Of a DNA stretch of 64,000 nt, positions 6,201-15,037 are shown one piece after another; position 1 is the stretch's first letter, and every line of letters starts with the position of its first letter. The position numbers and the translations under genes were made by a program. Where the stretch lies: NCBI GenBank assembly GCA_035776675.1, contig DASTWO010000033.1, positions 431-64,430 of the forward strand. The letters run 5' to 3'. The stretch comes from Bacillales bacterium. Its GTDB lineage: Bacteria > Bacillota > Bacilli > Bacillales > DASSOY01. Under the pieces are notes generated by a model that did no database searches, was not told the origin of the DNA, and saw only the letters and a list, made by a program, of their open reading frames with translations.

Positions 6201-6824
6201 TTAATCGTTGACTGCCATTCGCGCGAGCGGACCGTTTTCTGCAATGATGTCCTGAATCTCGTAAACCGAGATCGGAAACATCGGGAATCCGACATAGTAA
6301 GGTGTAATTTCATAAAGCTGAAAATAAAGTACCAGGCATTTATCGGCGATATAAAAGTCTTGATCGGGACGGATGCCGGTGAACGGATCCAGTGTTTCGA
6401 TCTGGCGGTCTTTGATTTGCTTTTTCACGAGGGCAGACAAGACTTTTACATAGTTACTTCCGGGTTTGAAAAGTTCTTTTAAAGAATAAGATTTTCCTGT
6501 CAGTACATCAAAAGTCAAAGATTTCATTAAAGTCAGGCCATGTGCGTGTTGGTAGGCGTATGCGTAGTTGGATAAGCTCAAGCTCAGAACATTTCGCTCA
6601 TTGGTTTTCAATTCATAGGTTCCAAGCATTTCTGTGAAGGTTTCGGCGCCTTGTTGTTGAGTTTGTTGTTGGATCAAGGCTTGGACCGATCTGTATATGG
6701 TTTGGTTGATCATTTGCTGCACATGGGGATTTTGCATGTTAAACACTTGCGGGTAATAAAGGGTCGTGCCCTGATTTCGGATGACCATTGTTTGAATGGA
6801 AACGGGAAAAGCCGGAGTAGCCAT
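6201..6824 (-). CDS. DUF3298/DUF4163 domain protein (RsiV/PdaC C-terminal-like fold)
   Basis: RBS AAAGGTGG. Motifs YPQV...INQTI..., LSLSLSNYAYAYQHAHGL, FYIADKCLVLYFQLYEITPYYVGFPMFPI. Confidence 0.75.
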   Translation of the reverse strand: MATPAFPVSIQTMVIRNQGTTLYYPQVFNMQNPHVQQMINQTIYRSVQALIQQQTQQQGAETFTEMLGTYELKTNERNVLSLSLSNYAYAYQHAHGLTLMKSLTFDVLTGKSYSLKELFKPGSNYVKVLSALVKKQIKDRQIETLDPFTGIRPDQDFYIADKCLVLYFQLYEITPYYVGFPMFPISVYEIQDIIAENGPLARMAVND

Positions 6825-6871
6825 GGAAATACCACCTTTCTTTTGCCATCTTTTATTTTTCTCGGGTCCTC

Positions 6872-6940
6872 ATACGACTCTGGTCTTAGCTGAAAATCAA
6901 ACCATGGTGTGTTTTGGAGGACACGGATATTAAGTATGCT
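6872..6940 (+). promoter_or_regulatory. LiaR-type box plus promoter (copy A), upstream of 6993
   Basis: ATACGACTCTGGTCTTA (6872-6888) is the inverted repeat TACGAC-N4-GTCTTA. It is followed by conserved GAAAATCAAACC, then TTTTGG (6912-6917)-N17-TATGCT (6935-6940). Same architecture as copies B and C. Confidence 0.6.
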
Positions 6941-6992
6941 TTTGTTCAAGGAAGCCATTGAGAAATATTAATGACAGAAGGGAGTCTCTTTC

Positions 6993-7649
6993 ATGGCATA
7001 TGAAAATCAAACGGATTTTGTGACAAATGCGGAGTTGTTCATGGGGGCGTTCCGGAAAGGAAAGGAAGAGAATGATCGGTATGTATATATTCTATTAACC
7101 GATACGGGCACACTTTTCACGAAAACGGTCAAGCGATATACGAGAGCGCCGTACAATCATACTTCTTTGTCATTCGATATGAAATTCGAGGAACTTTACA
7201 GTTTCGGTCGAAAACATCCGAAAAATCCTTTGAAGGCGGGTTTTATCAAAGAAGACATCTATCGGGGAACCTACAGTCATTTTCGGGATACGAGATGTGT
7301 CTTGTTTAAGTTAAATGTTTCGGAACCCCAATTGGCTGAGATGAGGCGTACGGTGATTTCATTCCAGTTGAGACAAAAGATTTATTCATACAATTTGATT
7401 GGACTGCTTGGTGTTATGCTTCAGTATCCCATTGAGATGGAAAATGCTTATTTTTGTTCGCAATTTGTAGCTGAGGTGTTGAAAAGAGGGGGCGTTCATC
7501 TTTGGAATAAGTCGTCAGCGCTTGTCACGCCGGGTGATTTCTTGGAGCATGCGTCTTTTCAAAAAATTTATGAAGGGAAGTTGTATGATTATCCTTTGTT
7601 GGAAACCAGCTTGTTGGTGGGAGAGAGTTCGGGTTGTAGCGTGATGTGA
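6993..7649 (+). CDS. Permuted papain-fold (YiiX/YebB-like, NlpC/P60 superfamily) protein
   Basis: RBS GAAGGGAG. APYNHTSL and YFCSQFVAEVLKRGG (candidate catalytic Cys) resemble the YiiX/C92-like family. The assignment is from memory. Confidence 0.55.
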   Translation: MAYENQTDFVTNAELFMGAFRKGKEENDRYVYILLTDTGTLFTKTVKRYTRAPYNHTSLSFDMKFEELYSFGRKHPKNPLKAGFIKEDIYRGTYSHFRDTRCVLFKLNVSEPQLAEMRRTVISFQLRQKIYSYNLIGLLGVMLQYPIEMENAYFCSQFVAEVLKRGGVHLWNKSSALVTPGDFLEHASFQKIYEGKLYDYPLLETSLLVGESSGCSVM

Positions 7650-7670
7650 TACTTTTGATACCCTTGCAGG

Positions 7671-7775
7671 GTATATATGAACGAAAAATGGATTTTATGC
7701 ACGAAAGTCGGCTGTATTTGCACGAAAAATTGAATTTATGCACGAAACGAACTGATATTTGCACCATTCCAATGT
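7671..7775 (+). repeat. Five phased direct repeats (about 21-bp period), core T(A/T)TGCACGAAA
   Basis: Core starts at 7678 (TGAACGAAA), 7698, 7719 and 7739 (TGCACGAAA) and 7760 (TGCACC). Spacing is 20-21 bp. Located in the 3' region of gene 6993, before the terminator at 7867. Confidence 0.8.
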
Positions 7776-7866
7776 TATGTCAACCTCCATGGTTGGAAAA
7801 CCGTTCAATACCCCTATTGAAAATCCCCCGTTCGTAAAAAACCAATCCCTGACACCAACAAAACCG

Positions 7867-7900
7867 GCCATTTTATATGTAATGGCTTTCTTCCTTTTCC
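7867..7900 (+). terminator. Probable terminator
   Basis: GCCATT/AATGGC stem with an 8-nt loop, followed by TTTCTTCCTTTTCC. Confidence 0.45.
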
Positions 7901-7906
7901 TAAAGA

Positions 7907-7975
7907 ATACGACTCCGGTCTGAATCGAATATCAAACTGAGGTACATTTTGAGTTTCTCTGATTCGGGATATGAT
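7907..7975 (+). promoter_or_regulatory. LiaR-type box plus promoter (copy B), upstream of 8015
   Basis: ATACGACTCCGGTCTGA (7907-7923), then TTTTGA (7947-7952)-N17-TATGAT (7970-7975). Confidence 0.6.
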
Positions 7976-8014
7976 GGGCAAGAAGGAAACTTGATTAAAG
8001 AAAAGAGGGATTAA

Positions 8015-8422
8015 ATGAGCGAAAGCAATAGTGTGAGCAGTGGTGAAACAGGAGGAGGAATCATTCGAGTTATTTATGCCTTTCTGGCATGGGTTTTTGT
8101 CGCGTGTGTGGTTGTACAGGTATTTCTGGCGGGCGTTGCAACGTTCGGTGATGCAACCTACTGGGGAAAGCATATGACTTTTGTTCACCTTTTTGAATTC
8201 GTGCCGATTGTAATGTTCATCCTGTCGTTCATCGGTCGGCTGCGTGGGGGCTTGCGGTGGTGGCCGTTCGTGCTTTTTGGGTTGATTTTCTTACAATACT
8301 TTACCGCTAACATCGGGAAGGTCGTTTCCACAGACTTTTTGGCGGCGCTCCATCCTGTCAATGCTTTGGTGATCTTCTGGCTCGCGATCGTTACAGCGCT
8401 TCGTGCGTCAAAAAGAAAATAA
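8015..8422 (+). CDS. Small integral membrane protein (4 predicted TM helices; DUF6220-like, recalled)
   Basis: RBS AGAGGGA. Hydrophobic segments IIRVIYAFLAWVFVACVVVQVFLAGV, FVPIVMFILSFIG, WWPFVLFGLIFLQYF and VNALVIFWLAIVTAL. Confidence 0.7.
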   Translation: MSESNSVSSGETGGGIIRVIYAFLAWVFVACVVVQVFLAGVATFGDATYWGKHMTFVHLFEFVPIVMFILSFIGRLRGGLRWWPFVLFGLIFLQYFTANIGKVVSTDFLAALHPVNALVIFWLAIVTALRASKRK

Positions 8423-8451
8423 GGTGAGAGCCGTCGAGGGTCTTTGACAGA

Positions 8452-8520
8452 ATACGACCCCGGTCTTATCCGAAAATCCATCCGTAGTGCGTTTTGGAAA
8501 AACGAAATGTTTCCTAAGAT
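8452..8520 (+). promoter_or_regulatory. LiaR-type box plus promoter (copy C), the PliaI equivalent
   Basis: ATACGACCCCGGTCTTA (8452-8468), then TTTTGG (8492-8497)-N17-TAAGAT (8515-8520). It lies directly upstream of liaI-liaH. Confidence 0.7.
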
Positions 8521-8550
8521 AGAAACAGAAAGGCGAAGGGAGGGAAAAAA

Positions 8551-8970
8551 ATGAATATCACTGGAAAGTTCATCGGCGGGATTGCCCTGGTTCTTCTTGG
8601 AGGGTGGTTGTTACTCGGTATGTTTGGTGTTCATCTCGGAGGCTTGATCGCTTTGTTGTTTGGCATCGTCCTCATCTGTTTCGGGGTGAAGAAGCTCAAA
8701 CAGGATCATAAGGTTCTGGGTGTGATTTCGTTGATTTTCGGTTTTATGTTTCTCGGCGGGTCGCTGCCATTCTTGATCAGTCTTGCTTTAGCAGCTGTGT
8801 GTATTTATTTCGGCTGGAAGTTGATTAAGCAAGAAAGACATCAATCGGAACCCGCTGCCGCTTATTCCGGCGACACGGAGTTTATGGATTACCGGAATGT
8901 GAAAGTGGAAGACAGCTTTGATCGCGAATGGGAAGACTTTCTGAGGAAGAATCCGAAGGATAACGATTGA
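8551..8970 (+). CDS. liaI: LiaI-like small membrane protein (putative membrane anchor for LiaH/PspA)
   Basis: Four hydrophobic helices followed by an acidic cytoplasmic tail. Sits immediately upstream of the PspA-family gene and downstream of the LiaR box. Confidence 0.6.
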   Translation: MNITGKFIGGIALVLLGGWLLLGMFGVHLGGLIALLFGIVLICFGVKKLKQDHKVLGVISLIFGFMFLGGSLPFLISLALAAVCIYFGWKLIKQERHQSEPAAAYSGDTEFMDYRNVKVEDSFDREWEDFLRKNPKDND

Positions 8971-9073: not shown

Positions 9074-9763
9074 ATGGTATTGAAAAGAATTGGAGACATG
9101 ATTAGCGCGACCATTAACGAGGGGTTGGATCAAGTGGAGAATCCGAGAGTAATGCTCAATCAGTATTTGCGGGATATGGAGAGCGAGGTCGCGAAGGCGA
9201 AGCACGCGATTGTGAAGCAGCGCAGTCTGGAGCAAAGCTTCAGACGCAGAATGGAAGAAGCGCGGAAGTTGGCCGCGAAGCGGAGGAACCAGGGGCAGCT
9301 GGCGTTTGACGCGGGCGAGGAAGACCTGGCACGGAAGGCGTTAGCCGACATGAAGGGCTATGAAGCGAAAGCGGAGCAATACAGGGAGCTGGCGGAGAAA
9401 GCGGCGGAGCAGGTGCGTGAGCTGCAGGAGCAGCTGGGAGAGCTCGAAGAGCGATTCCAGGCGTTGAAGGACAAGAAGCATGCGTTGATCGCGCGAGCGA
9501 ATGCGGTGCGGGCGAAGGAGCATATGCAGGCATCGATGAATCGGGTGGATTCCGAGAGCGCGTTCCGTGAATTTCAGCGGCTCGAGGATCGGATTGCCGA
9601 GGCGGAGATCCGCGTGAATGCGTGGGGATGCGGGGGATTTGAGAGCAGCAGCGGACAGTTTGCGAAGCTGGAGTATGCGGATGAAGTGGAGAAGGAATTG
9701 GAGAAAATGCGGAAGAAGAATGGCGAGGGGAAATTGAGCAACGACGATAAGCAGGCCAATTAA
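9074..9763 (+). CDS. liaH: PspA/IM30 family phage-shock-like protein (LiaH)
   Basis: MVLKRIGDMISATINEGLDQVENPRVMLNQYLRDMESEVAKAK is the canonical PspA/IM30 N-terminus, followed by long coiled-coil A/E/R/K-rich sequence. RBS AAGGGAGG. Confidence 0.92.
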   Translation: MVLKRIGDMISATINEGLDQVENPRVMLNQYLRDMESEVAKAKHAIVKQRSLEQSFRRRMEEARKLAAKRRNQGQLAFDAGEEDLARKALADMKGYEAKAEQYRELAEKAAEQVRELQEQLGELEERFQALKDKKHALIARANAVRAKEHMQASMNRVDSESAFREFQRLEDRIAEAEIRVNAWGCGGFESSSGQFAKLEYADEVEKELEKMRKKNGEGKLSNDDKQAN

Positions 9764-9865: not shown

Positions 9866-10780
9866 ATGGCGGAAGTTATTGCGGTGGAAGGTTTGATCAA
9901 GCGATACGATGGGATTGAAGCGGTTAAGGAGATTTCGTTTACTGTGGAAAAAGGCGAGATCTTCGGGATGATTGGCCCAAACGGGGCAGGGAAGACCACG
10001 ACGATTGAGATTCTGGAGGGGCTGCGTAAACGTGATGAAGGAGAGGTTCGTGTTCTCGGCCTTGATCCGGGAAAAGATCAATATCAATTAAATGAAATGA
10101 TCGGTGTGCAATTTCAGGCAACCTCCATTCAGGAATTGATGAAGGTGAAGGAAGCTCTTTCGTTGTTTGCCTCTTTTTATAATGTGAGTGATGACGAAAT
10201 TGAAAAGGTTATTGCTGATTTGAACTTGAATGATAAATTGGATACGTACTTCAAAGATCTGTCTGGCGGCTGGAAACAACGGGTAACCCTTGCGCTTTCT
10301 GTCTTGCACAAGCCGGATATTGTTTTTCTGGATGAACCGAGTATGGGGCTTGATCCTCAAGCGAGACGTGAATTGTGGGAGGTCATCAGATCGCTTCAGG
10401 CGAACGGAACGACGATACTTGTGACCACGCATTACATGGAAGAAGCTGAAAGATTATGTGATCGGGTTGCGATGATTTATGATGGAAGAATTGAGGCTCT
10501 GGGGCAACCCAATGAGTTGCTTGAGGAACTGGCGACCCATTATCTTGTTTTTGAAAGTCCCAATGCGGCTCAAGATGTACTGAGGGATCTACCTGGAGTG
10601 GCTTCAGTGGAGCATGAAGGTGAGGCAATACGGATCCTTACGGAGGATTTGCAGACTACGTCATATCATCTATTTAAAGAAGCAGATGAACGAAGGTGGG
10701 AGATTCGAGCCTTCCGGTTTGAGAGAGGCACGCTGGAAGATCTGTTTGTTCATTTGTCGGGAAGGGAGGAAGTCGTATGA
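9866..10780 (+). CDS. ABC transporter ATP-binding protein (ABC-2 exporter type) embedded in the lia locus
   Basis: Walker A GPNGAGKTT, signature LSGGWKQRV, Walker B IVFLDEPSMGLD. RBS GAGGAGGG. Confidence 0.92.
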   Translation: MAEVIAVEGLIKRYDGIEAVKEISFTVEKGEIFGMIGPNGAGKTTTIEILEGLRKRDEGEVRVLGLDPGKDQYQLNEMIGVQFQATSIQELMKVKEALSLFASFYNVSDDEIEKVIADLNLNDKLDTYFKDLSGGWKQRVTLALSVLHKPDIVFLDEPSMGLDPQARRELWEVIRSLQANGTTILVTTHYMEEAERLCDRVAMIYDGRIEALGQPNELLEELATHYLVFESPNAAQDVLRDLPGVASVEHEGEAIRILTEDLQTTSYHLFKEADERRWEIRAFRFERGTLEDLFVHLSGREEVV

Positions 10781-11517
10781 ACAAAATTGTCAAGTTGTCA
10801 GTGATCGAAACCAAGCTGTTTTTCAGGGAAAAGGCGGCTGTATTTTGGACTTTTTTGTTTCCTGTGTTGATGATCTGGCTCTTCGGTGCCATGTTCGGGC
10901 AATTCAAAGTTGGAGGCATGTCCTACAGTAATGCTTATATCCCGTCATGGATCGCTGTTAACATTATGACGACCGCCTTTTTCGGTATCGGTATGGTTCT
11001 TGCCGGTTACAGGGAAAAGGGGATCCTACGCCGCTATCAGGCTACTCCAGTCCGTCCGTGGATGATCCTGGCTGCGCAAACTGTGCAAGGAACGGTGATC
11101 TTTGCTTTCAGTGTTTTCGTCATTGTCGCTTTCGGGTTTATCAAGTTCGATCTCCATGTTCCCGAATATTTGGGAAGCACGATCCTCGCGATTTTATTAA
11201 GTTTGGCGGCCTTTTTCCCATTTGGGTTGCTGCTGAATTCACTGGCCAAAAGTGTTCGTACGGCATCAGCGATCAGTTCACTTGCGCTGAATGTGATGAT
11301 ATTCCTTTCGGGGGCGACCTTTCCGCTGGAAATGATGCCGACCGCTCTTCAATGGGTCGCAAAGTTCTTGCCTCTCTATTACGTCATTCATTTGACCCGG
11401 CATACGTGGAATTTCTCACCGATTTGGGAAAACGGGTTTGACGTAGCGGTGCTGATTTTCGTAGGAGTGGTTTCTATTCTCCTGTCATCAAAATACTTTC
11501 GTTGGAGTGGACATTAA
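10777..11517 (+). CDS. ABC-2 type transporter permease
   Basis: ATGA overlap with the ATPase gene. Six hydrophobic helices, 246 aa. Confidence 0.85.
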   Translation: MNKIVKLSVIETKLFFREKAAVFWTFLFPVLMIWLFGAMFGQFKVGGMSYSNAYIPSWIAVNIMTTAFFGIGMVLAGYREKGILRRYQATPVRPWMILAAQTVQGTVIFAFSVFVIVAFGFIKFDLHVPEYLGSTILAILLSLAAFFPFGLLLNSLAKSVRTASAISSLALNVMIFLSGATFPLEMMPTALQWVAKFLPLYYVIHLTRHTWNFSPIWENGFDVAVLIFVGVVSILLSSKYFRWSGH

Positions 11518-12408
11518 ATGTTGAAGAAAGCAATCGGCCTCCTGTTTATTATAATCGGAGCCTTTATAATCCTAGGCATGGTTGGCCACAAGGGCGTAAA
11601 CTGGTGGACTTCAAACCATCATAATCTGCAAAACCAATCCATGATTCTTCGAGGCATCGCCACGATTGAAATTGAGGCTACCGGCACACAAGTCAATATC
11701 ATTTCCGAGGATCGGGGAAAGTTGATGGCTGATTTACATGGAGACGGAAACGGCCGCGCTAATCTGGATTTTCAACGGAATGGCGACCATCTGGAAATTC
11801 AGGTGGATCAGAATTGGTTCCATTGGTTCTCATTCGGGGACGGGTTAATTTTGGACGTTTATGTCCCTGAAAATTATAATAAAGCTATGGCCGTTGACCT
11901 TGGCTCAGGTGACCTGGATATTCAAGGTCCTTCCAAGAAGGAAATGATGAACTTAAATAGTTTCGCATTGGATATGAGTTCGGGAAATGCCGATCTTGAA
12001 AATCTGCGATTGGACCAATTGAAAATGGATGGTTCTTCAGGGAACATTGACCTCCGTTGGGTAACGGCCAATGAGGCTTCACTAGACATTAGTTCAGGGA
12101 ATATTGATTTGGAGCACTATAGCGGCTCGTTGGATGCTGAATTGTCTTCAGGAAGGCTCAACGCAAAATTCGAGCAGATCATGGGCCCCGTCGACATTGA
12201 AGCCAGCTCCGGGATGATTTCATTGGATTTACCGGATGAAGCGAATTTTGCATTAGAAGCGAAGGTCAGCAGCGGATGGATAGATTGTGAAATTCCGCTT
12301 CAAAATAAAAGTGTGGAAGAAGATAGAAATGAGGTCAGAGGGTCCCATGGAAGCGGGAAATATAAGATTGAACTTGATTCGTCGAGCGGCGTTATACACA
12401 TTTATTAA
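11518..12408 (+). CDS. liaG: LiaG-like protein (N-terminal TM anchor plus DUF4097 beta-helix repeats)
   Basis: Starts directly after the preceding stop. N-terminal TM segment, then repeated SSGNIDL / SSGNADL / SSGRLNA / SSGMISL / SSGWIDC / SSGVIHI units typical of DUF4097. Confidence 0.75.
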   Translation: MLKKAIGLLFIIIGAFIILGMVGHKGVNWWTSNHHNLQNQSMILRGIATIEIEATGTQVNIISEDRGKLMADLHGDGNGRANLDFQRNGDHLEIQVDQNWFHWFSFGDGLILDVYVPENYNKAMAVDLGSGDLDIQGPSKKEMMNLNSFALDMSSGNADLENLRLDQLKMDGSSGNIDLRWVTANEASLDISSGNIDLEHYSGSLDAELSSGRLNAKFEQIMGPVDIEASSGMISLDLPDEANFALEAKVSSGWIDCEIPLQNKSVEEDRNEVRGSHGSGKYKIELDSSSGVIHIY

Positions 12409-12429
12409 GGGTGGAAGGGGGCGGAGCCA

Positions 12430-13347
12430 TTGCGCCTGTCACGGAACCGTTTAGGCGGTTTTTTCGTAATCTTTATTGGTCTTTGCATCTTGTTTGGGGT
12501 TTTGGGACTCGGATTTTTGATTGGCCCGATTTTGTTCGCGGGCGCCGGGGTCATTTTGATCAGAAGAAAACATCGTTGGTTTGGACTGATTTGCTTTGCC
12601 CTTTCCCTTATTGTTCTATTTGAGACGGTTTTTCATATCGACATCGGAGGTTTGTTGGTAGCGGCATTTTTCATTTATTTCGGCTACAGGTTGATCACAG
12701 GCAAGTCTTGGCCTCGTCACCACGAAAGACATGCGGGACGGCATGACAGAAGAAGGTCAAGGCAAGATGATATGGACGATTGGGAAGCTGAAGAAAATGA
12801 GGCCGATGCGGTCGATGATGAAGACTGGATAGATAAAGAAATTGAAAATCTGAATACAAAAAATCAGCATGCTGATAGAGAAAACAAAAGCGAGGAAACC
12901 CAAACAAAAACTGAGCGAAACAATGACAAACATACAGAAAAGCAGACTGAAAGCGGCTCGACAGTTATTTTCAAAACCCCTGTTTATCGCAGCTCATTGA
13001 TCGGGGATTTTCGTCTCATGAACAGCCGGTTTGAATTGGATGATCTAAATTTGTCCAATTTCATTGGCGATGTGAAAATTGATCTATCTAAAGCCATCAT
13101 CCCCGAAGGTGAAAGCACACTTGTTATCAGCGGTTTTATCGGAGATGTGGACATCTACGTCCCATACGATCTTGATGTTTCCGTCAGTTCTTCAGTCACA
13201 ATCGGAGATATTGATGTGCTTGGACACAAACAGGGCGGCTTTAACAGGCAAGTTCGCCTGGAGACGAAAGGTTTTCCTGAAGCCTCCCGTAAGGTGAAAA
13301 TCTCCGTTTCAGTGTTTATCGGCGATGTGGATGTGAGATTTCTATGA
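12430..13347 (+). CDS. liaF: LiaF-like cell-wall-active-antibiotic response protein (TM domain plus DUF2154)
   Basis: N-terminal TM helices. C-terminal repeats FIGDVKIDL...GFIGDVDIYVP...TIGDIDVLG...VFIGDVDVRFL. Stop overlaps the liaS start. TTG start is uncertain. Confidence 0.85.
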   Translation: MRLSRNRLGGFFVIFIGLCILFGVLGLGFLIGPILFAGAGVILIRRKHRWFGLICFALSLIVLFETVFHIDIGGLLVAAFFIYFGYRLITGKSWPRHHERHAGRHDRRRSRQDDMDDWEAEENEADAVDDEDWIDKEIENLNTKNQHADRENKSEETQTKTERNNDKHTEKQTESGSTVIFKTPVYRSSLIGDFRLMNSRFELDDLNLSNFIGDVKIDLSKAIIPEGESTLVISGFIGDVDIYVPYDLDVSVSSSVTIGDIDVLGHKQGGFNRQVRLETKGFPEASRKVKISVSVFIGDVDVRFL

Positions 13348-14408
13348 AGAACAGGAAGTTAACGAGCATACGCTGGAGAATGTTGCAAGGGTTCATCTGG
13401 TCCGGTATTTTGCTTTCTGTTCTCACCCTTTTTATATTATTGGTCTACTACCATCTTGATTTTCAGGTATTGTTCTCTGTGAAATGGTTGGGATTGCCTT
13501 TTGTGATCATTCTGGAAGTACTGATTGTCGCTGTCAGCGCCTTGTTTGGCTATGTTTTTGGAAGCGGGGTTAAGAAGCGGCTGGAGTTGCTGAGCGAATC
13601 CATTCTAAATTACGAAAGAGGCAACTTCGGGCACAGGGTTCCATCATTAGGGGAGGATGAGATCGGGCTCATGGCCCAACAACTGAATGAGATGGCACAG
13701 CGGGTGGAAAAGCAGGTGGCTTCTTTACAACGATTATCTACTGAGAAAGCGGAGCTGAACGAACAAGTGAAGAAATCGGCAATTTCCGAGGAACGCCAAC
13801 GTCTGGCTCGTGAACTTCATGATGCGGTCAGCCAGCAATTGTTTGCGATATCGATGATGACATCGGCGATTCTTGAGAATCCCGAACTCATTGAAGGGAC
13901 CTTGAAAAAACGGATTGTCTCGGTAGAGAAAATGGCCGGAAACGCGCAAAATGAAATGCGTGCCTTGTTGTTGCATTTACGTCCTGCCACTCTTGAAGGA
14001 AAAGGACTGAAGGAAGGCCTTGAGGAGCTGTTGAGTGAATTCGAAACCAAGCAACCGCTGGTGATTCATTGGGAGATCGCGGACCTTCCGGAATTGACGA
14101 AGGGCATTGAAGATCATTTGTTTCGGATCGTTCAAGAAAGCATGTCCAATGTGTTTCGGCATTCACAGGCGGCCTCGGTTTCCATTCGCCTGGGTACGGC
14201 GGGTGGACAGCTCCATCTGAGAATCATTGATAACGGAACCGGATTTAACATGACCCAATCGAAGCCATCGTCTTATGGGCTTCAATCCATCCAAGAACGT
14301 GCCAATGAAATCGGCGGGGTGGCGGAAATTATTTCATTTCCCGAGAAGGGAACACAGGTTGAAGTGAAAGTCCCGATTATGGAAAAGAGAAGGGAGAAAG
14401 AATCATGA
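13344..14408 (+). CDS. liaS: Sensor histidine kinase LiaS (HAMP, HisKA_3, HATPase)
   Basis: Two TM helices, a HAMP-like segment, H-box RLARELHDAVSQQLF, N-box SNVFRHS, G-box DNGTGF...GLQSIQERA. Confidence 0.92.
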   Translation: MKNRKLTSIRWRMLQGFIWSGILLSVLTLFILLVYYHLDFQVLFSVKWLGLPFVIILEVLIVAVSALFGYVFGSGVKKRLELLSESILNYERGNFGHRVPSLGEDEIGLMAQQLNEMAQRVEKQVASLQRLSTEKAELNEQVKKSAISEERQRLARELHDAVSQQLFAISMMTSAILENPELIEGTLKKRIVSVEKMAGNAQNEMRALLLHLRPATLEGKGLKEGLEELLSEFETKQPLVIHWEIADLPELTKGIEDHLFRIVQESMSNVFRHSQAASVSIRLGTAGGQLHLRIIDNGTGFNMTQSKPSSYGLQSIQERANEIGGVAEIISFPEKGTQVEVKVPIMEKRREKES

Positions 14409-15037
14409 TACGTGTGCTGCTCGTTGATGATCATGAGATGGTAAGAATGGGTCTCTCCGCCTATCTGGAGTCCCAGTCCGATATCGAAATTGTCGGGGAG
14501 GCTTCGAACGGTGAAGAAGGGGTGCGATTAGCGGAAGAAACCGTTCCAGATGTCATATTAATGGACCTTGTCATGGAAGGAATGGACGGAGTAGAAGCGA
14601 CACGACAGATAAGCCTGGTGTTGGAGCAGGTGAAAATTATCGTTCTGACCAGTTTCGTGGATGACGACAAGGTGGTCCCGGTACTTGAAGCAGGAGCCTT
14701 CAGCTACTTGTTGAAGACTTCGAAAGCCGGAGAAATTGCTGAGGCCATCCGGGCGGCAAGCCGGGGAGAGTCGATTCTTGAGGCAAAAGTGACTGGTAAG
14801 GTACTGTCCAATATGCGCGGTTCGGGAGAGCGTAAATTGCATGAAGAATTGACCGGGCGAGAAATTGAAATTCTGCGTCTGATCGCGGAAGGCAAAACGA
14901 ATCATGATATTGCCGATGAACTGTTTATAGCGGTGAAAACGGTAAAAACCCATATTACAAATATCTTTTCCAAACTGGAAGTGGACGATCGTACCCAGGC
15001 GGCGATTTACGCTCACCGAAACAAGTTGGTGAATTGA
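14405..15037 (+). CDS. liaR: Response regulator LiaR (NarL/LuxR family)
   Basis: Receiver domain IRVLLVDDHEMVR...DVILMDLVMEGMDG. LuxR HTH LTGREIEILRLIAEGKTNHDIADELFIAVKTVKTHITNIFSKL. Confidence 0.93.
   Translation: MIRVLLVDDHEMVRMGLSAYLESQSDIEIVGEASNGEEGVRLAEETVPDVILMDLVMEGMDGVEATRQISLVLEQVKIIVLTSFVDDDKVVPVLEAGAFSYLLKTSKAGEIAEAIRAASRGESILEAKVTGKVLSNMRGSGERKLHEELTGREIEILRLIAEGKTNHDIADELFIAVKTVKTHITNIFSKLEVDDRTQAAIYAHRNKLVN

Follow-up and report, generated by a model that had tools for sequence, protein, structure and literature searches.

The lia operon of an uncultured soil Bacillales bacterium is preceded by three copies of a single promoter architecture, and on sequence grounds we consider it likely that all three copies are LiaR-activated σA promoters of the PliaI type. 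The DNA concerned, referred to below as the window, is a stretch of 64,000 nucleotides (contig DASTWO010000033.1 of assembly GCA_035776675.1, positions 431 to 64,430) from a metagenome-assembled genome (MAG; here G000), a draft of 226 contigs and 3,123,429 bp with 46% G+C and an estimated contamination of 5%. The three modules, designated A, B and C in the order of their positions, stand before a gene for a YiiX-like hydrolase, a gene for a DUF6220 membrane protein and the operon that begins with liaI and liaH, respectively. For module C taken alone, the identification as a LiaR-activated PliaI is close to certain. The two uncharacterised genes, for the hydrolase and the DUF6220 protein, have probably been added to the antibiotic-stress response, and what we see is most likely a local cluster by which the LiaR regulon has grown in this lineage, an extension of a known system and not a new one.

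Several lines of evidence lead to this conclusion. In 3.1 Mb the exact box is present just three times, at a single locus and always on the same strand ahead of a gene, and the modules align without gaps to PliaI and fit the published footprint and motif. The cognate liaFSR genes are located in the same operon, and the helix-turn-helix of the encoded LiaR, including its recognition helix, is nearly identical to that of Enterococcus faecium LiaR. Furthermore, one congener (G002) keeps all three modules and another (G001) two of them, the same promoter grammar recurs at liaH-linked promoters elsewhere, and DUF6220 genes are linked independently to LiaR-type boxes in two further genomes (G179 and G361). 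In these comparisons, G002 is the MAG SMAG_U2008, with 81% DNA identity to G000, G001 is a more distant congener, and G361 belongs to another order. Two broader data sets were also used: a survey of 301 genomes of the order, and a scan of one genome each for 185,579 species with the query TACGACNNNNGTCTTANNNRAAAAT, which returned 29 stretches.

Three modules at a single locus

The pattern TACGACNNNGGTCT (TACGAC-N3-GGTCT) matches the window with zero mismatches at 6873, 7908 and 8453, each time on the + strand; the nine remaining matches carry two mismatches each and are at chance level (12 matches in total, 7.8 expected). Independently, a repeat search returned a 47-nt family with three copies at 6872-6918, 7907-7953 and 8452-8498 (70-81% identity), and an alignment of the modules with MAFFT gave invariant ATACGAC, GGTCT, GAA.ATC (that is, GAA(A/T)ATC) and TTTTG blocks plus a TA..xT hexamer. 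Pattern scan, repeat search and alignment agree with a sequence-only reading of the window, which had described an inverted repeat, a GAAAATC-like stretch and TTTTG(G/A)-N17-hexamer occurring three times on the + strand, and the blocks that it took to be shared are the ones recovered by MAFFT. In all three modules the start of TACGAC lies 39 nt from the start of the -35 hexamer, and the -35 and -10 hexamers are separated by 17 nt. The distance from box start to start codon is 121 nt for the gene at 6993, 108 nt for that at 8015 and 99 nt for that at 8551, so that the range of about 105-120 nt given in that reading is corrected to 99-121 nt.

A scan of the entire draft genome, which the same reading had suggested, gave just the three exact TACGACNNNGGTCT sites at this locus. 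When up to two mismatches to TACGAC-N4-GTCTTA are allowed, the genome contains 110 sites, and a high-scoring TTTTG/TAnnnT geometry accompanies these three only. A perfect palindrome on contig C75, TAAGACTCCCGTCTTA, was considered as a LiaR site and rejected, since it coincides with the loop of a hairpin in the leader of an ilvB-like gene.

The distribution of the box bears directly on one alternative, namely that the repeats arose by chance or belong to a repetitive element without regulatory role. It is true that the exact TACGAC-N4-GTCTTA box turns up sporadically in unrelated genomes, where it reaches at most one or two per genome among the 301 genomes outside this genus, about the frequency of the reversed control, and that a genuine dispersed repeat lies nearby at 7669-7747. 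However, all three exact copies fall within 1.6 kb, on the same strand and at promoter distance from a gene, and the rest of the genome has none; they are also conserved in two more genomes and show in-register homology to a characterised promoter. These findings effectively refute the alternative.

Correspondence to PliaI of Bacillus subtilis

The DNase I footprint of B. subtilis LiaR on PliaI extends from -76 to -52, with the site given as ATAcGACtcccgGTCtTAT, and the general LiaR motif is T-N4-C-N4-G-N4-A (PMC7191749). Boxes A, B and C all fit this motif. Seven hits of the species scan come from the B. subtilis group (B. spizizenii, B. tequilensis, B. rugosus, B. stercoris, B. inaquosorum, B. 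halotolerans and B. mojavensis), and in each of them ATACGACTCCGGTCTTAT-ATAAAAATCAATCTCTGATTCG-TTTTGC-N17-TAAGAT is found 99 nt upstream of liaI, which is followed by liaH, liaG and liaF. The LiaR site that the sequence-only reading had given for PliaI is in agreement with both the published site and these seven sequences.

All three modules can be aligned to PliaI of B. spizizenii in register and without gaps, with 16 of the 17 box positions identical in each case. The segment between box and -35 is identical at 17-19 of 28 positions (shuffle p<=1.5e-4), the highest value being that of module A (19/28; p<5e-5), whereas the sequence of the spacer between -35 and -10 is not conserved. The -35 position at +39 and the 17-nt spacer are common to the three modules and the PliaI promoters of the B. 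subtilis group. In copy C, moreover, the -10 hexamer TAAGAT is the same as in that group, and the distance from TACGAC to liaI differs by at most one base (98-100 nt). This copy precedes liaI and liaH, with liaFSR further downstream, which is the position that had been assigned to it. The in-register homology marks copy C as the PliaI orthologue and copies A and B as full PliaI-type promoters rather than boxes alone. Relative to the predicted start, the boxes would have the placement of about -76 to -59 expected of LiaR-dependent promoters, and their geometry to -35 and -10 matches that of the B. subtilis-group promoters exactly. If transcription began about 7 nt past the -10 hexamer (at about 6947 in promoter A), box and A-tract together would coincide with the published footprint.

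Conservation and promoter grammar

In G002, half-sites and hexamers of all three modules are intact and the spacers are variable; this is also the only genome of the species scan in which a stretch with more than one module was found. A fourth exact box in G002, on contig C190, was judged to be a chance occurrence, as it coincides in part with a ribosome-binding site and the start of a gene, is without promoter geometry and has two mismatches in its G000 counterpart. The two boxes of G001 are TACGACTCTAGTCCGA before the DUF6220 gene and TACGACTGCGGTCTGA before liaI. There the gene order is DUF6220-liaI-liaH-liaG-liaF-liaS-liaR, without the hydrolase gene and without the pair of ATP-binding cassette (ABC) transporter genes that are present in both G000 and G002, which indicates that these were additions within the genus.

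Twelve promoters could be placed in register (three from the window, three from G002, two from G001, two of the Melghiribacillus type and two from G179), giving the consensus aTACGACt-N3-GTCTtA-N4-AAAATc-a-C-N3-GGT-c-TTttg-N17-TAtg.T. The same grammar is seen at liaH-linked promoters of Melghiribacillus, Metabacillus, Viridibacillus and G179. Among themselves the window modules share 58-68% identity, and with the liaH-linked promoters of other genera, in the same register, 51-59%. A recent local duplication as the main source of their similarity is therefore unsupported, since mutual identity is barely above cross-genus identity, and most of the similarity is better attributed to a shared functional grammar. 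Together, the conserved C and GGT positions give a T-N4-C-N4-G-N4-T element whose end meets the -35 hexamer. Hypothetically, this element might be a secondary LiaR site, comparable to the secondary downstream VraR site mentioned in PMC7191749. The grammar beyond the LiaR box, consisting of the A-tract and the C-N3-GGT abutting the -35, could refine regulon prediction and expression tools based on PliaI.

LiaR and the paralogous system

The LiaR protein encoded at the locus reaches 261 bits in comparison with E. faecium LiaR (5hev) and 228 bits with Staphylococcus aureus VraR, and it is presumed to be the activator that binds the three boxes. It is not the only candidate in the genome. G000 also encodes a second LiaF/LiaS/LiaR-like set behind an ABC ATPase and a permease (contig C59:1-4800), with a LiaR 59% identical to that of the window, as well as further NarL-type regulators, any of which could own the boxes or share them with LiaR. 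However, the paralogous operon is preceded by another palindrome, TCCGTCTGGAGACGGA, and by no TACGAC box. G000, G002 and G179 each contain a single copy of this palindrome; in G179 (C1:2903199) it marks the paralogous operon, and the G002 copy (C230) precedes an ABC ATPase gene, like the copy on C59. In addition, the footprint of B. subtilis LiaR falls on the TACGAC-N4-GTCTTA box, which in the B. subtilis group is located at liaIH-liaGFSR. Control by a different NarL-family regulator is thus very improbable, and with a distinct palindrome at the paralogue, the simplest assignment of the three boxes is to the LiaR encoded at the locus.

Two observations may be added here. TCCGTCTGGAGACGGA looks like a variant LiaR-type operator, and a palindrome of this type is found before liaIH and before a DUF6220 gene in G361 (C66, C157). 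Outside the window, contig C11:1-1028 of G000 begins within a second copy of liaS-liaR, whose protein identity to the window genes is 86% for the LiaS C-terminus and 93% for LiaR; this copy likely stems from a mixture of strains or species in the MAG.

Is LiaR control shared by all three promoters?

A more restrictive reading is that only promoter C, and perhaps B, is physiologically dependent on LiaR, that boxes A and B bind the regulator with marginal induction, and that the genes behind A and B are expressed mainly by other means. B. subtilis offers a precedent, as its secondary LiaR boxes can be nearly silent: the yhcYZ-yhdA operon is induced only about 2-fold and ydhE is not induced in spite of its LiaR site, which means that a LiaR box alone is no guarantee of regulation. 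Box B, moreover, deviates once in the inverted repeat, with GTCTGA for GTCTTA, and has GAATATC for GAAAATC. Three further results also speak against control of all three promoters by LiaR. None of 28 loci with hydrolase homologues in other genera has a LiaR box before the gene; a generic σ70 consensus scan called none of the three promoters, whose hexamers are thus assigned by homology alone; and conservation footprinting is shallow, since the identity between G000 and G002 is only about 80% throughout, non-coding DNA included. The failure of the σ70 scan is explained by the weak -35 and is to be expected of activator-dependent promoters, for which such a scan carries no information.

On the other side, A and B have the whole PliaI architecture of box, A-tract, -35 at +39, N17 and -10, with the identities given above, and both are conserved in congeners. 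The PliaI box of G001 itself reads GTCTGA, and no alternative consensus promoter was found in the intergenic regions that carry the modules. We consider it unlikely that promoters A and B escape LiaR control, and activation of all three promoters by LiaR remains the interpretation that we prefer.

The predicted transcription units and their products

The features of the locus are collected in Table 1. No terminator between the DUF6220 gene and box C was returned by the terminator scan, so read-through from promoter B into liaI is likely. An Rfam scan of 6700-8700 gave no RNA family in the leaders or the 3' untranslated region.

Table 1. Predicted features of the tandem promoter region and the lia operon (window coordinates)
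Feature	Position	Strand	Remarks
LiaR-type box A	6872..6889	+	ATACGAC-TCTG-GTCTTAG; 7-4-7 inverted repeat; fits T-N4-C-N4-G-N4-A; 16/17 as in the B. spizizenii PliaI box
Predicted promoter A	6890..6940	+	GAAAATC / C-N3-GGT stretch; weak -35 TTTTGG 6912-6917; N17; -10 TATGCT 6935-6940
Hydrolase gene	6993..7649	+	cytoplasmic 218-aa YiiX/YaeF-like permuted papain (NlpC/P60) cysteine hydrolase, from fold search; alternative start 7041
Terminator-like hairpin	7866..7897	+	stem-loop at 7866-7887 followed by a T-rich tail; closes unit A, with box B 10 nt further on
LiaR-type box B	7907..7924	+	ATACGAC-TCCG-GTCTGAA; fits T-N4-C-N4-G-N4-A
Predicted promoter B	7925..7975	+	GAATATC stretch; -35 TTTTGA 7947-7952; N17; -10 TATGAT 7970-7975
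DUF6220 gene	8015..8422	+	135-aa membrane protein, four hydrophobic segments; PF19728, E 4.3e-26
LiaR-type box C (PliaI operator)	8452..8469	+	ATACGAC-CCCG-GTCTTAT
Predicted promoter C (PliaI)	8470..8520	+	GAAAATC stretch; -35 TTTTGG 8492-8497; N17; -10 TAAGAT 8515-8520
liaI	8551-8970	+	LiaF-TM domain, from domain search
liaH	9074-9763	+	PspA/IM30, from profile search
ABC ATPase and ABC-2 permease	9866..11517	+	inserted between liaH and liaG
liaG-like (DUF4097), liaF, liaS, liaR	11518..15037	+	liaF, liaS and liaR at 12430-15037

The product of liaH scores 172 bits against PspA_IM30 (cut-off 33.9) and 311 bits against the LiaH equivalog NF045984 of NCBIfam (cut-off 380).

The hydrolase behind promoter A was identified through its fold. 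Its alternative start at 7041 is that of the deposited 202-aa protein; the extension of 16 codons (6993-7041) is open in both G000 and G002, with one synonymous and two non-synonymous changes between them. No Pfam family matches the 218-aa protein at E<=0.01 and NCBIfam YaeF scores 19 bits against a cut-off of 279, which makes it a distant relative or sister family rather than a member of the curated models, and some of its homologues carry the source annotation 'Permuted papain-like amidase YaeF/YiiX'. His56 and Cys155 (in YFCSQF) are invariant in 35 homologues. An AlphaFold model (mean predicted local distance difference test score, pLDDT, 85.6) submitted to Foldseek matched 3kw0 of B. cereus (E 3e-5) and 2if6, the YiiX of E. 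coli (E 9e-4), and nothing else; both matches have a probability of 1.00 and a template-modelling (TM) score of about 0.5-0.58, at 11-17% sequence identity. The model-based search thus lends support to the YiiX-like papain fold proposed in the sequence-only reading.

The hydrolase family is present in 92 of the 301 genomes (about 30%). In five loci of one bacterial family (L015, L017, L023, L024 and L029), the homologue is preceded at 50-122 nt by TGAAAC-N16/17-CGT(A/C), the σW-type extracytoplasmic function (ECF) consensus of B. subtilis σW promoters; across 210 kb of retrieved loci the pattern has only six matches, of which these are five.

On the 3' side of the hydrolase gene, the repeat array at 7669-7747, which contains TGCACGAAA, belongs to the dispersed repeat mentioned above. 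At least eight more copies (74-87% identity) are present on other G000 contigs and several in G002, so that it looks like a small genome-wide repetitive element and not like an operator array specific to this locus.

The assignment of the protein behind promoter B to DUF6220, with four membrane segments, as had been proposed, is upheld by Pfam (PF19728, 91.4 bits against a gathering cut-off of 29.8) and by inspection of its sequence. DUF6220 genes occur in 28 of the 301 genomes, and two genomes link them to LiaR-type boxes outside the present genus. In G179 (L099, C1:3301718-3305068), a stand-alone pair of DUF6220 and PAP2 genes lies on the same strand downstream of the LiaR-like box TACGACTATAATCTTA, and the liaIH promoter of this genome has TACGCCTTAAGTCGTA with GAAAAAT. 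In G361, the palindrome TCCGTCTTAAGACGGA, which also fits T-N4-C-N4-G-N4-A, exists in exactly two genome copies: one precedes liaI-liaH and is followed by the grammar AAAATCAATCT...CGTTTTCC, and the other lies about 150 nt upstream of a DUF6220 gene. The PAP2-family phosphatase of G179 is possibly of the BcrC/undecaprenyl-pyrophosphate phosphatase type, which fits a context of lipid II-cycle stress.

Many DUF6220 genes of the order have a different upstream signal. An array TTAAGAA-N4-TTAAGAA-N4/5-TAAGA is found upstream of DUF6220 in 14 of 29 loci (L102, L104, L106, L107, L109, L111-L115, L117, L119, L121 and L122), and all 14 matches to the array in these loci are so placed. Its extended form, TTAAGAA-N4-TTAAGAA-N4/5-TAAGA-N5-TTTAGA, has an 11-bp period and stands immediately before the -10. 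In L115, genes for an OmpR-type response regulator and a histidine kinase lie directly upstream of the array, which probably serves an uncharacterised two-component system as its operator. G000 has a single DUF6220 gene. G002 has a second paralogue (L125, C65:6131-6475), 47% identical, beside an ABC ATPase gene and a few kb upstream of the tandem promoters. No paper on DUF6220 was found in the literature library searched.

Proposed mechanism

From the B. subtilis, enterococcal and staphylococcal systems we infer the following course of events, including LiaR binding, induction and transcript ends. Stress on the envelope or the lipid II cycle would free LiaS from LiaF, and LiaS would then bring about the phosphorylation of LiaR. 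A LiaR dimer would occupy the 7-4-7 repeat ATACGAC-N4-GTCTTAT, whose centre lies about 67 nt before the point at which transcription is predicted to begin, and would probably cover the adjacent A-tract too; a second dimer may sit on the T-N4-C-N4-G-N4-T element abutting the -35. Bound LiaR would recruit RNA polymerase to promoters whose -35 (TTTTGG) is presumably too poor for them to fire unaided. Transcription from promoter A would cover the hydrolase gene and stop at the hairpin, that from promoter B would cover the DUF6220 gene and probably read on into liaI, and that from promoter C would produce liaIH-ABC-liaGFSR, resulting in positive autoregulation.

Wider significance

The Lia system is a standard reporter and resistance determinant for daptomycin, bacitracin and vancomycin, and liaIH is essentially its sole relevant output in B. 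subtilis. A lineage that has recruited the same promoter for two more genes offers candidate co-effectors and places two uncharacterised families in a testable context. A broader proposal, which we put forward tentatively and with less than even confidence, is that DUF6220 proteins, and in this genus also the YiiX-like hydrolase, are unrecognised envelope-stress effectors of Bacilli that have repeatedly been wired to whichever envelope-stress regulator was at hand. It is prompted by the position of DUF6220 genes behind LiaR-type boxes in three distinct lineages and behind an OmpR-type two-component operator in many Bacillales, and by the σW-type promoters of the hydrolase in another family. 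As both gene families are recurrently under envelope-stress-type regulators, their recruitment to LiaR would be functionally coherent. The two proteins may act beside LiaIH/PspA; one way would be to remodel lipids, or precursors linked to lipids, on the inner side of the membrane. A fusion of PspA with NlpC/P60 has been reported (PMC11237479), a parallel that is thematic only.

Comparison with known systems

Neither the YiiX-like hydrolase nor DUF6220 is named in the LiaR literature examined. As for the hydrolase, it shares with YiiX (2if6) and the B. cereus cysteine peptidase 3kw0 the permuted papain fold and the order of His before Cys, but it differs from them in its low sequence identity and in scoring below the cut-offs of the family models.

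The promoters themselves have their closest counterpart in PliaI of B. subtilis and its relatives, with which they share the 7-4-7 repeat, the A-tract directly after it, a weak TTTTG-type -35 at 39 nt, the N17 spacer, a TAAGAT-type -10 and the presence of liaFSR within the same operon. In contrast to B. subtilis, the promoter is present here in three tandem copies, two of which would drive genes other than lia genes, and an ABC transporter pair separates liaH from liaG. More than one target promoter with a T-N4-C-N4-G-N4-A-type box is likewise known from the secondary targets of B. subtilis (yhcYZ-yhdA and ydhE) and from the LiaR/VraR regulons of Listeria, Enterococcus, Streptococcus mutans and Staphylococcus aureus. 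Unlike in those regulons, the additional targets found here form a cluster directly before the lia operon, and they repeat the architecture of PliaI in full.

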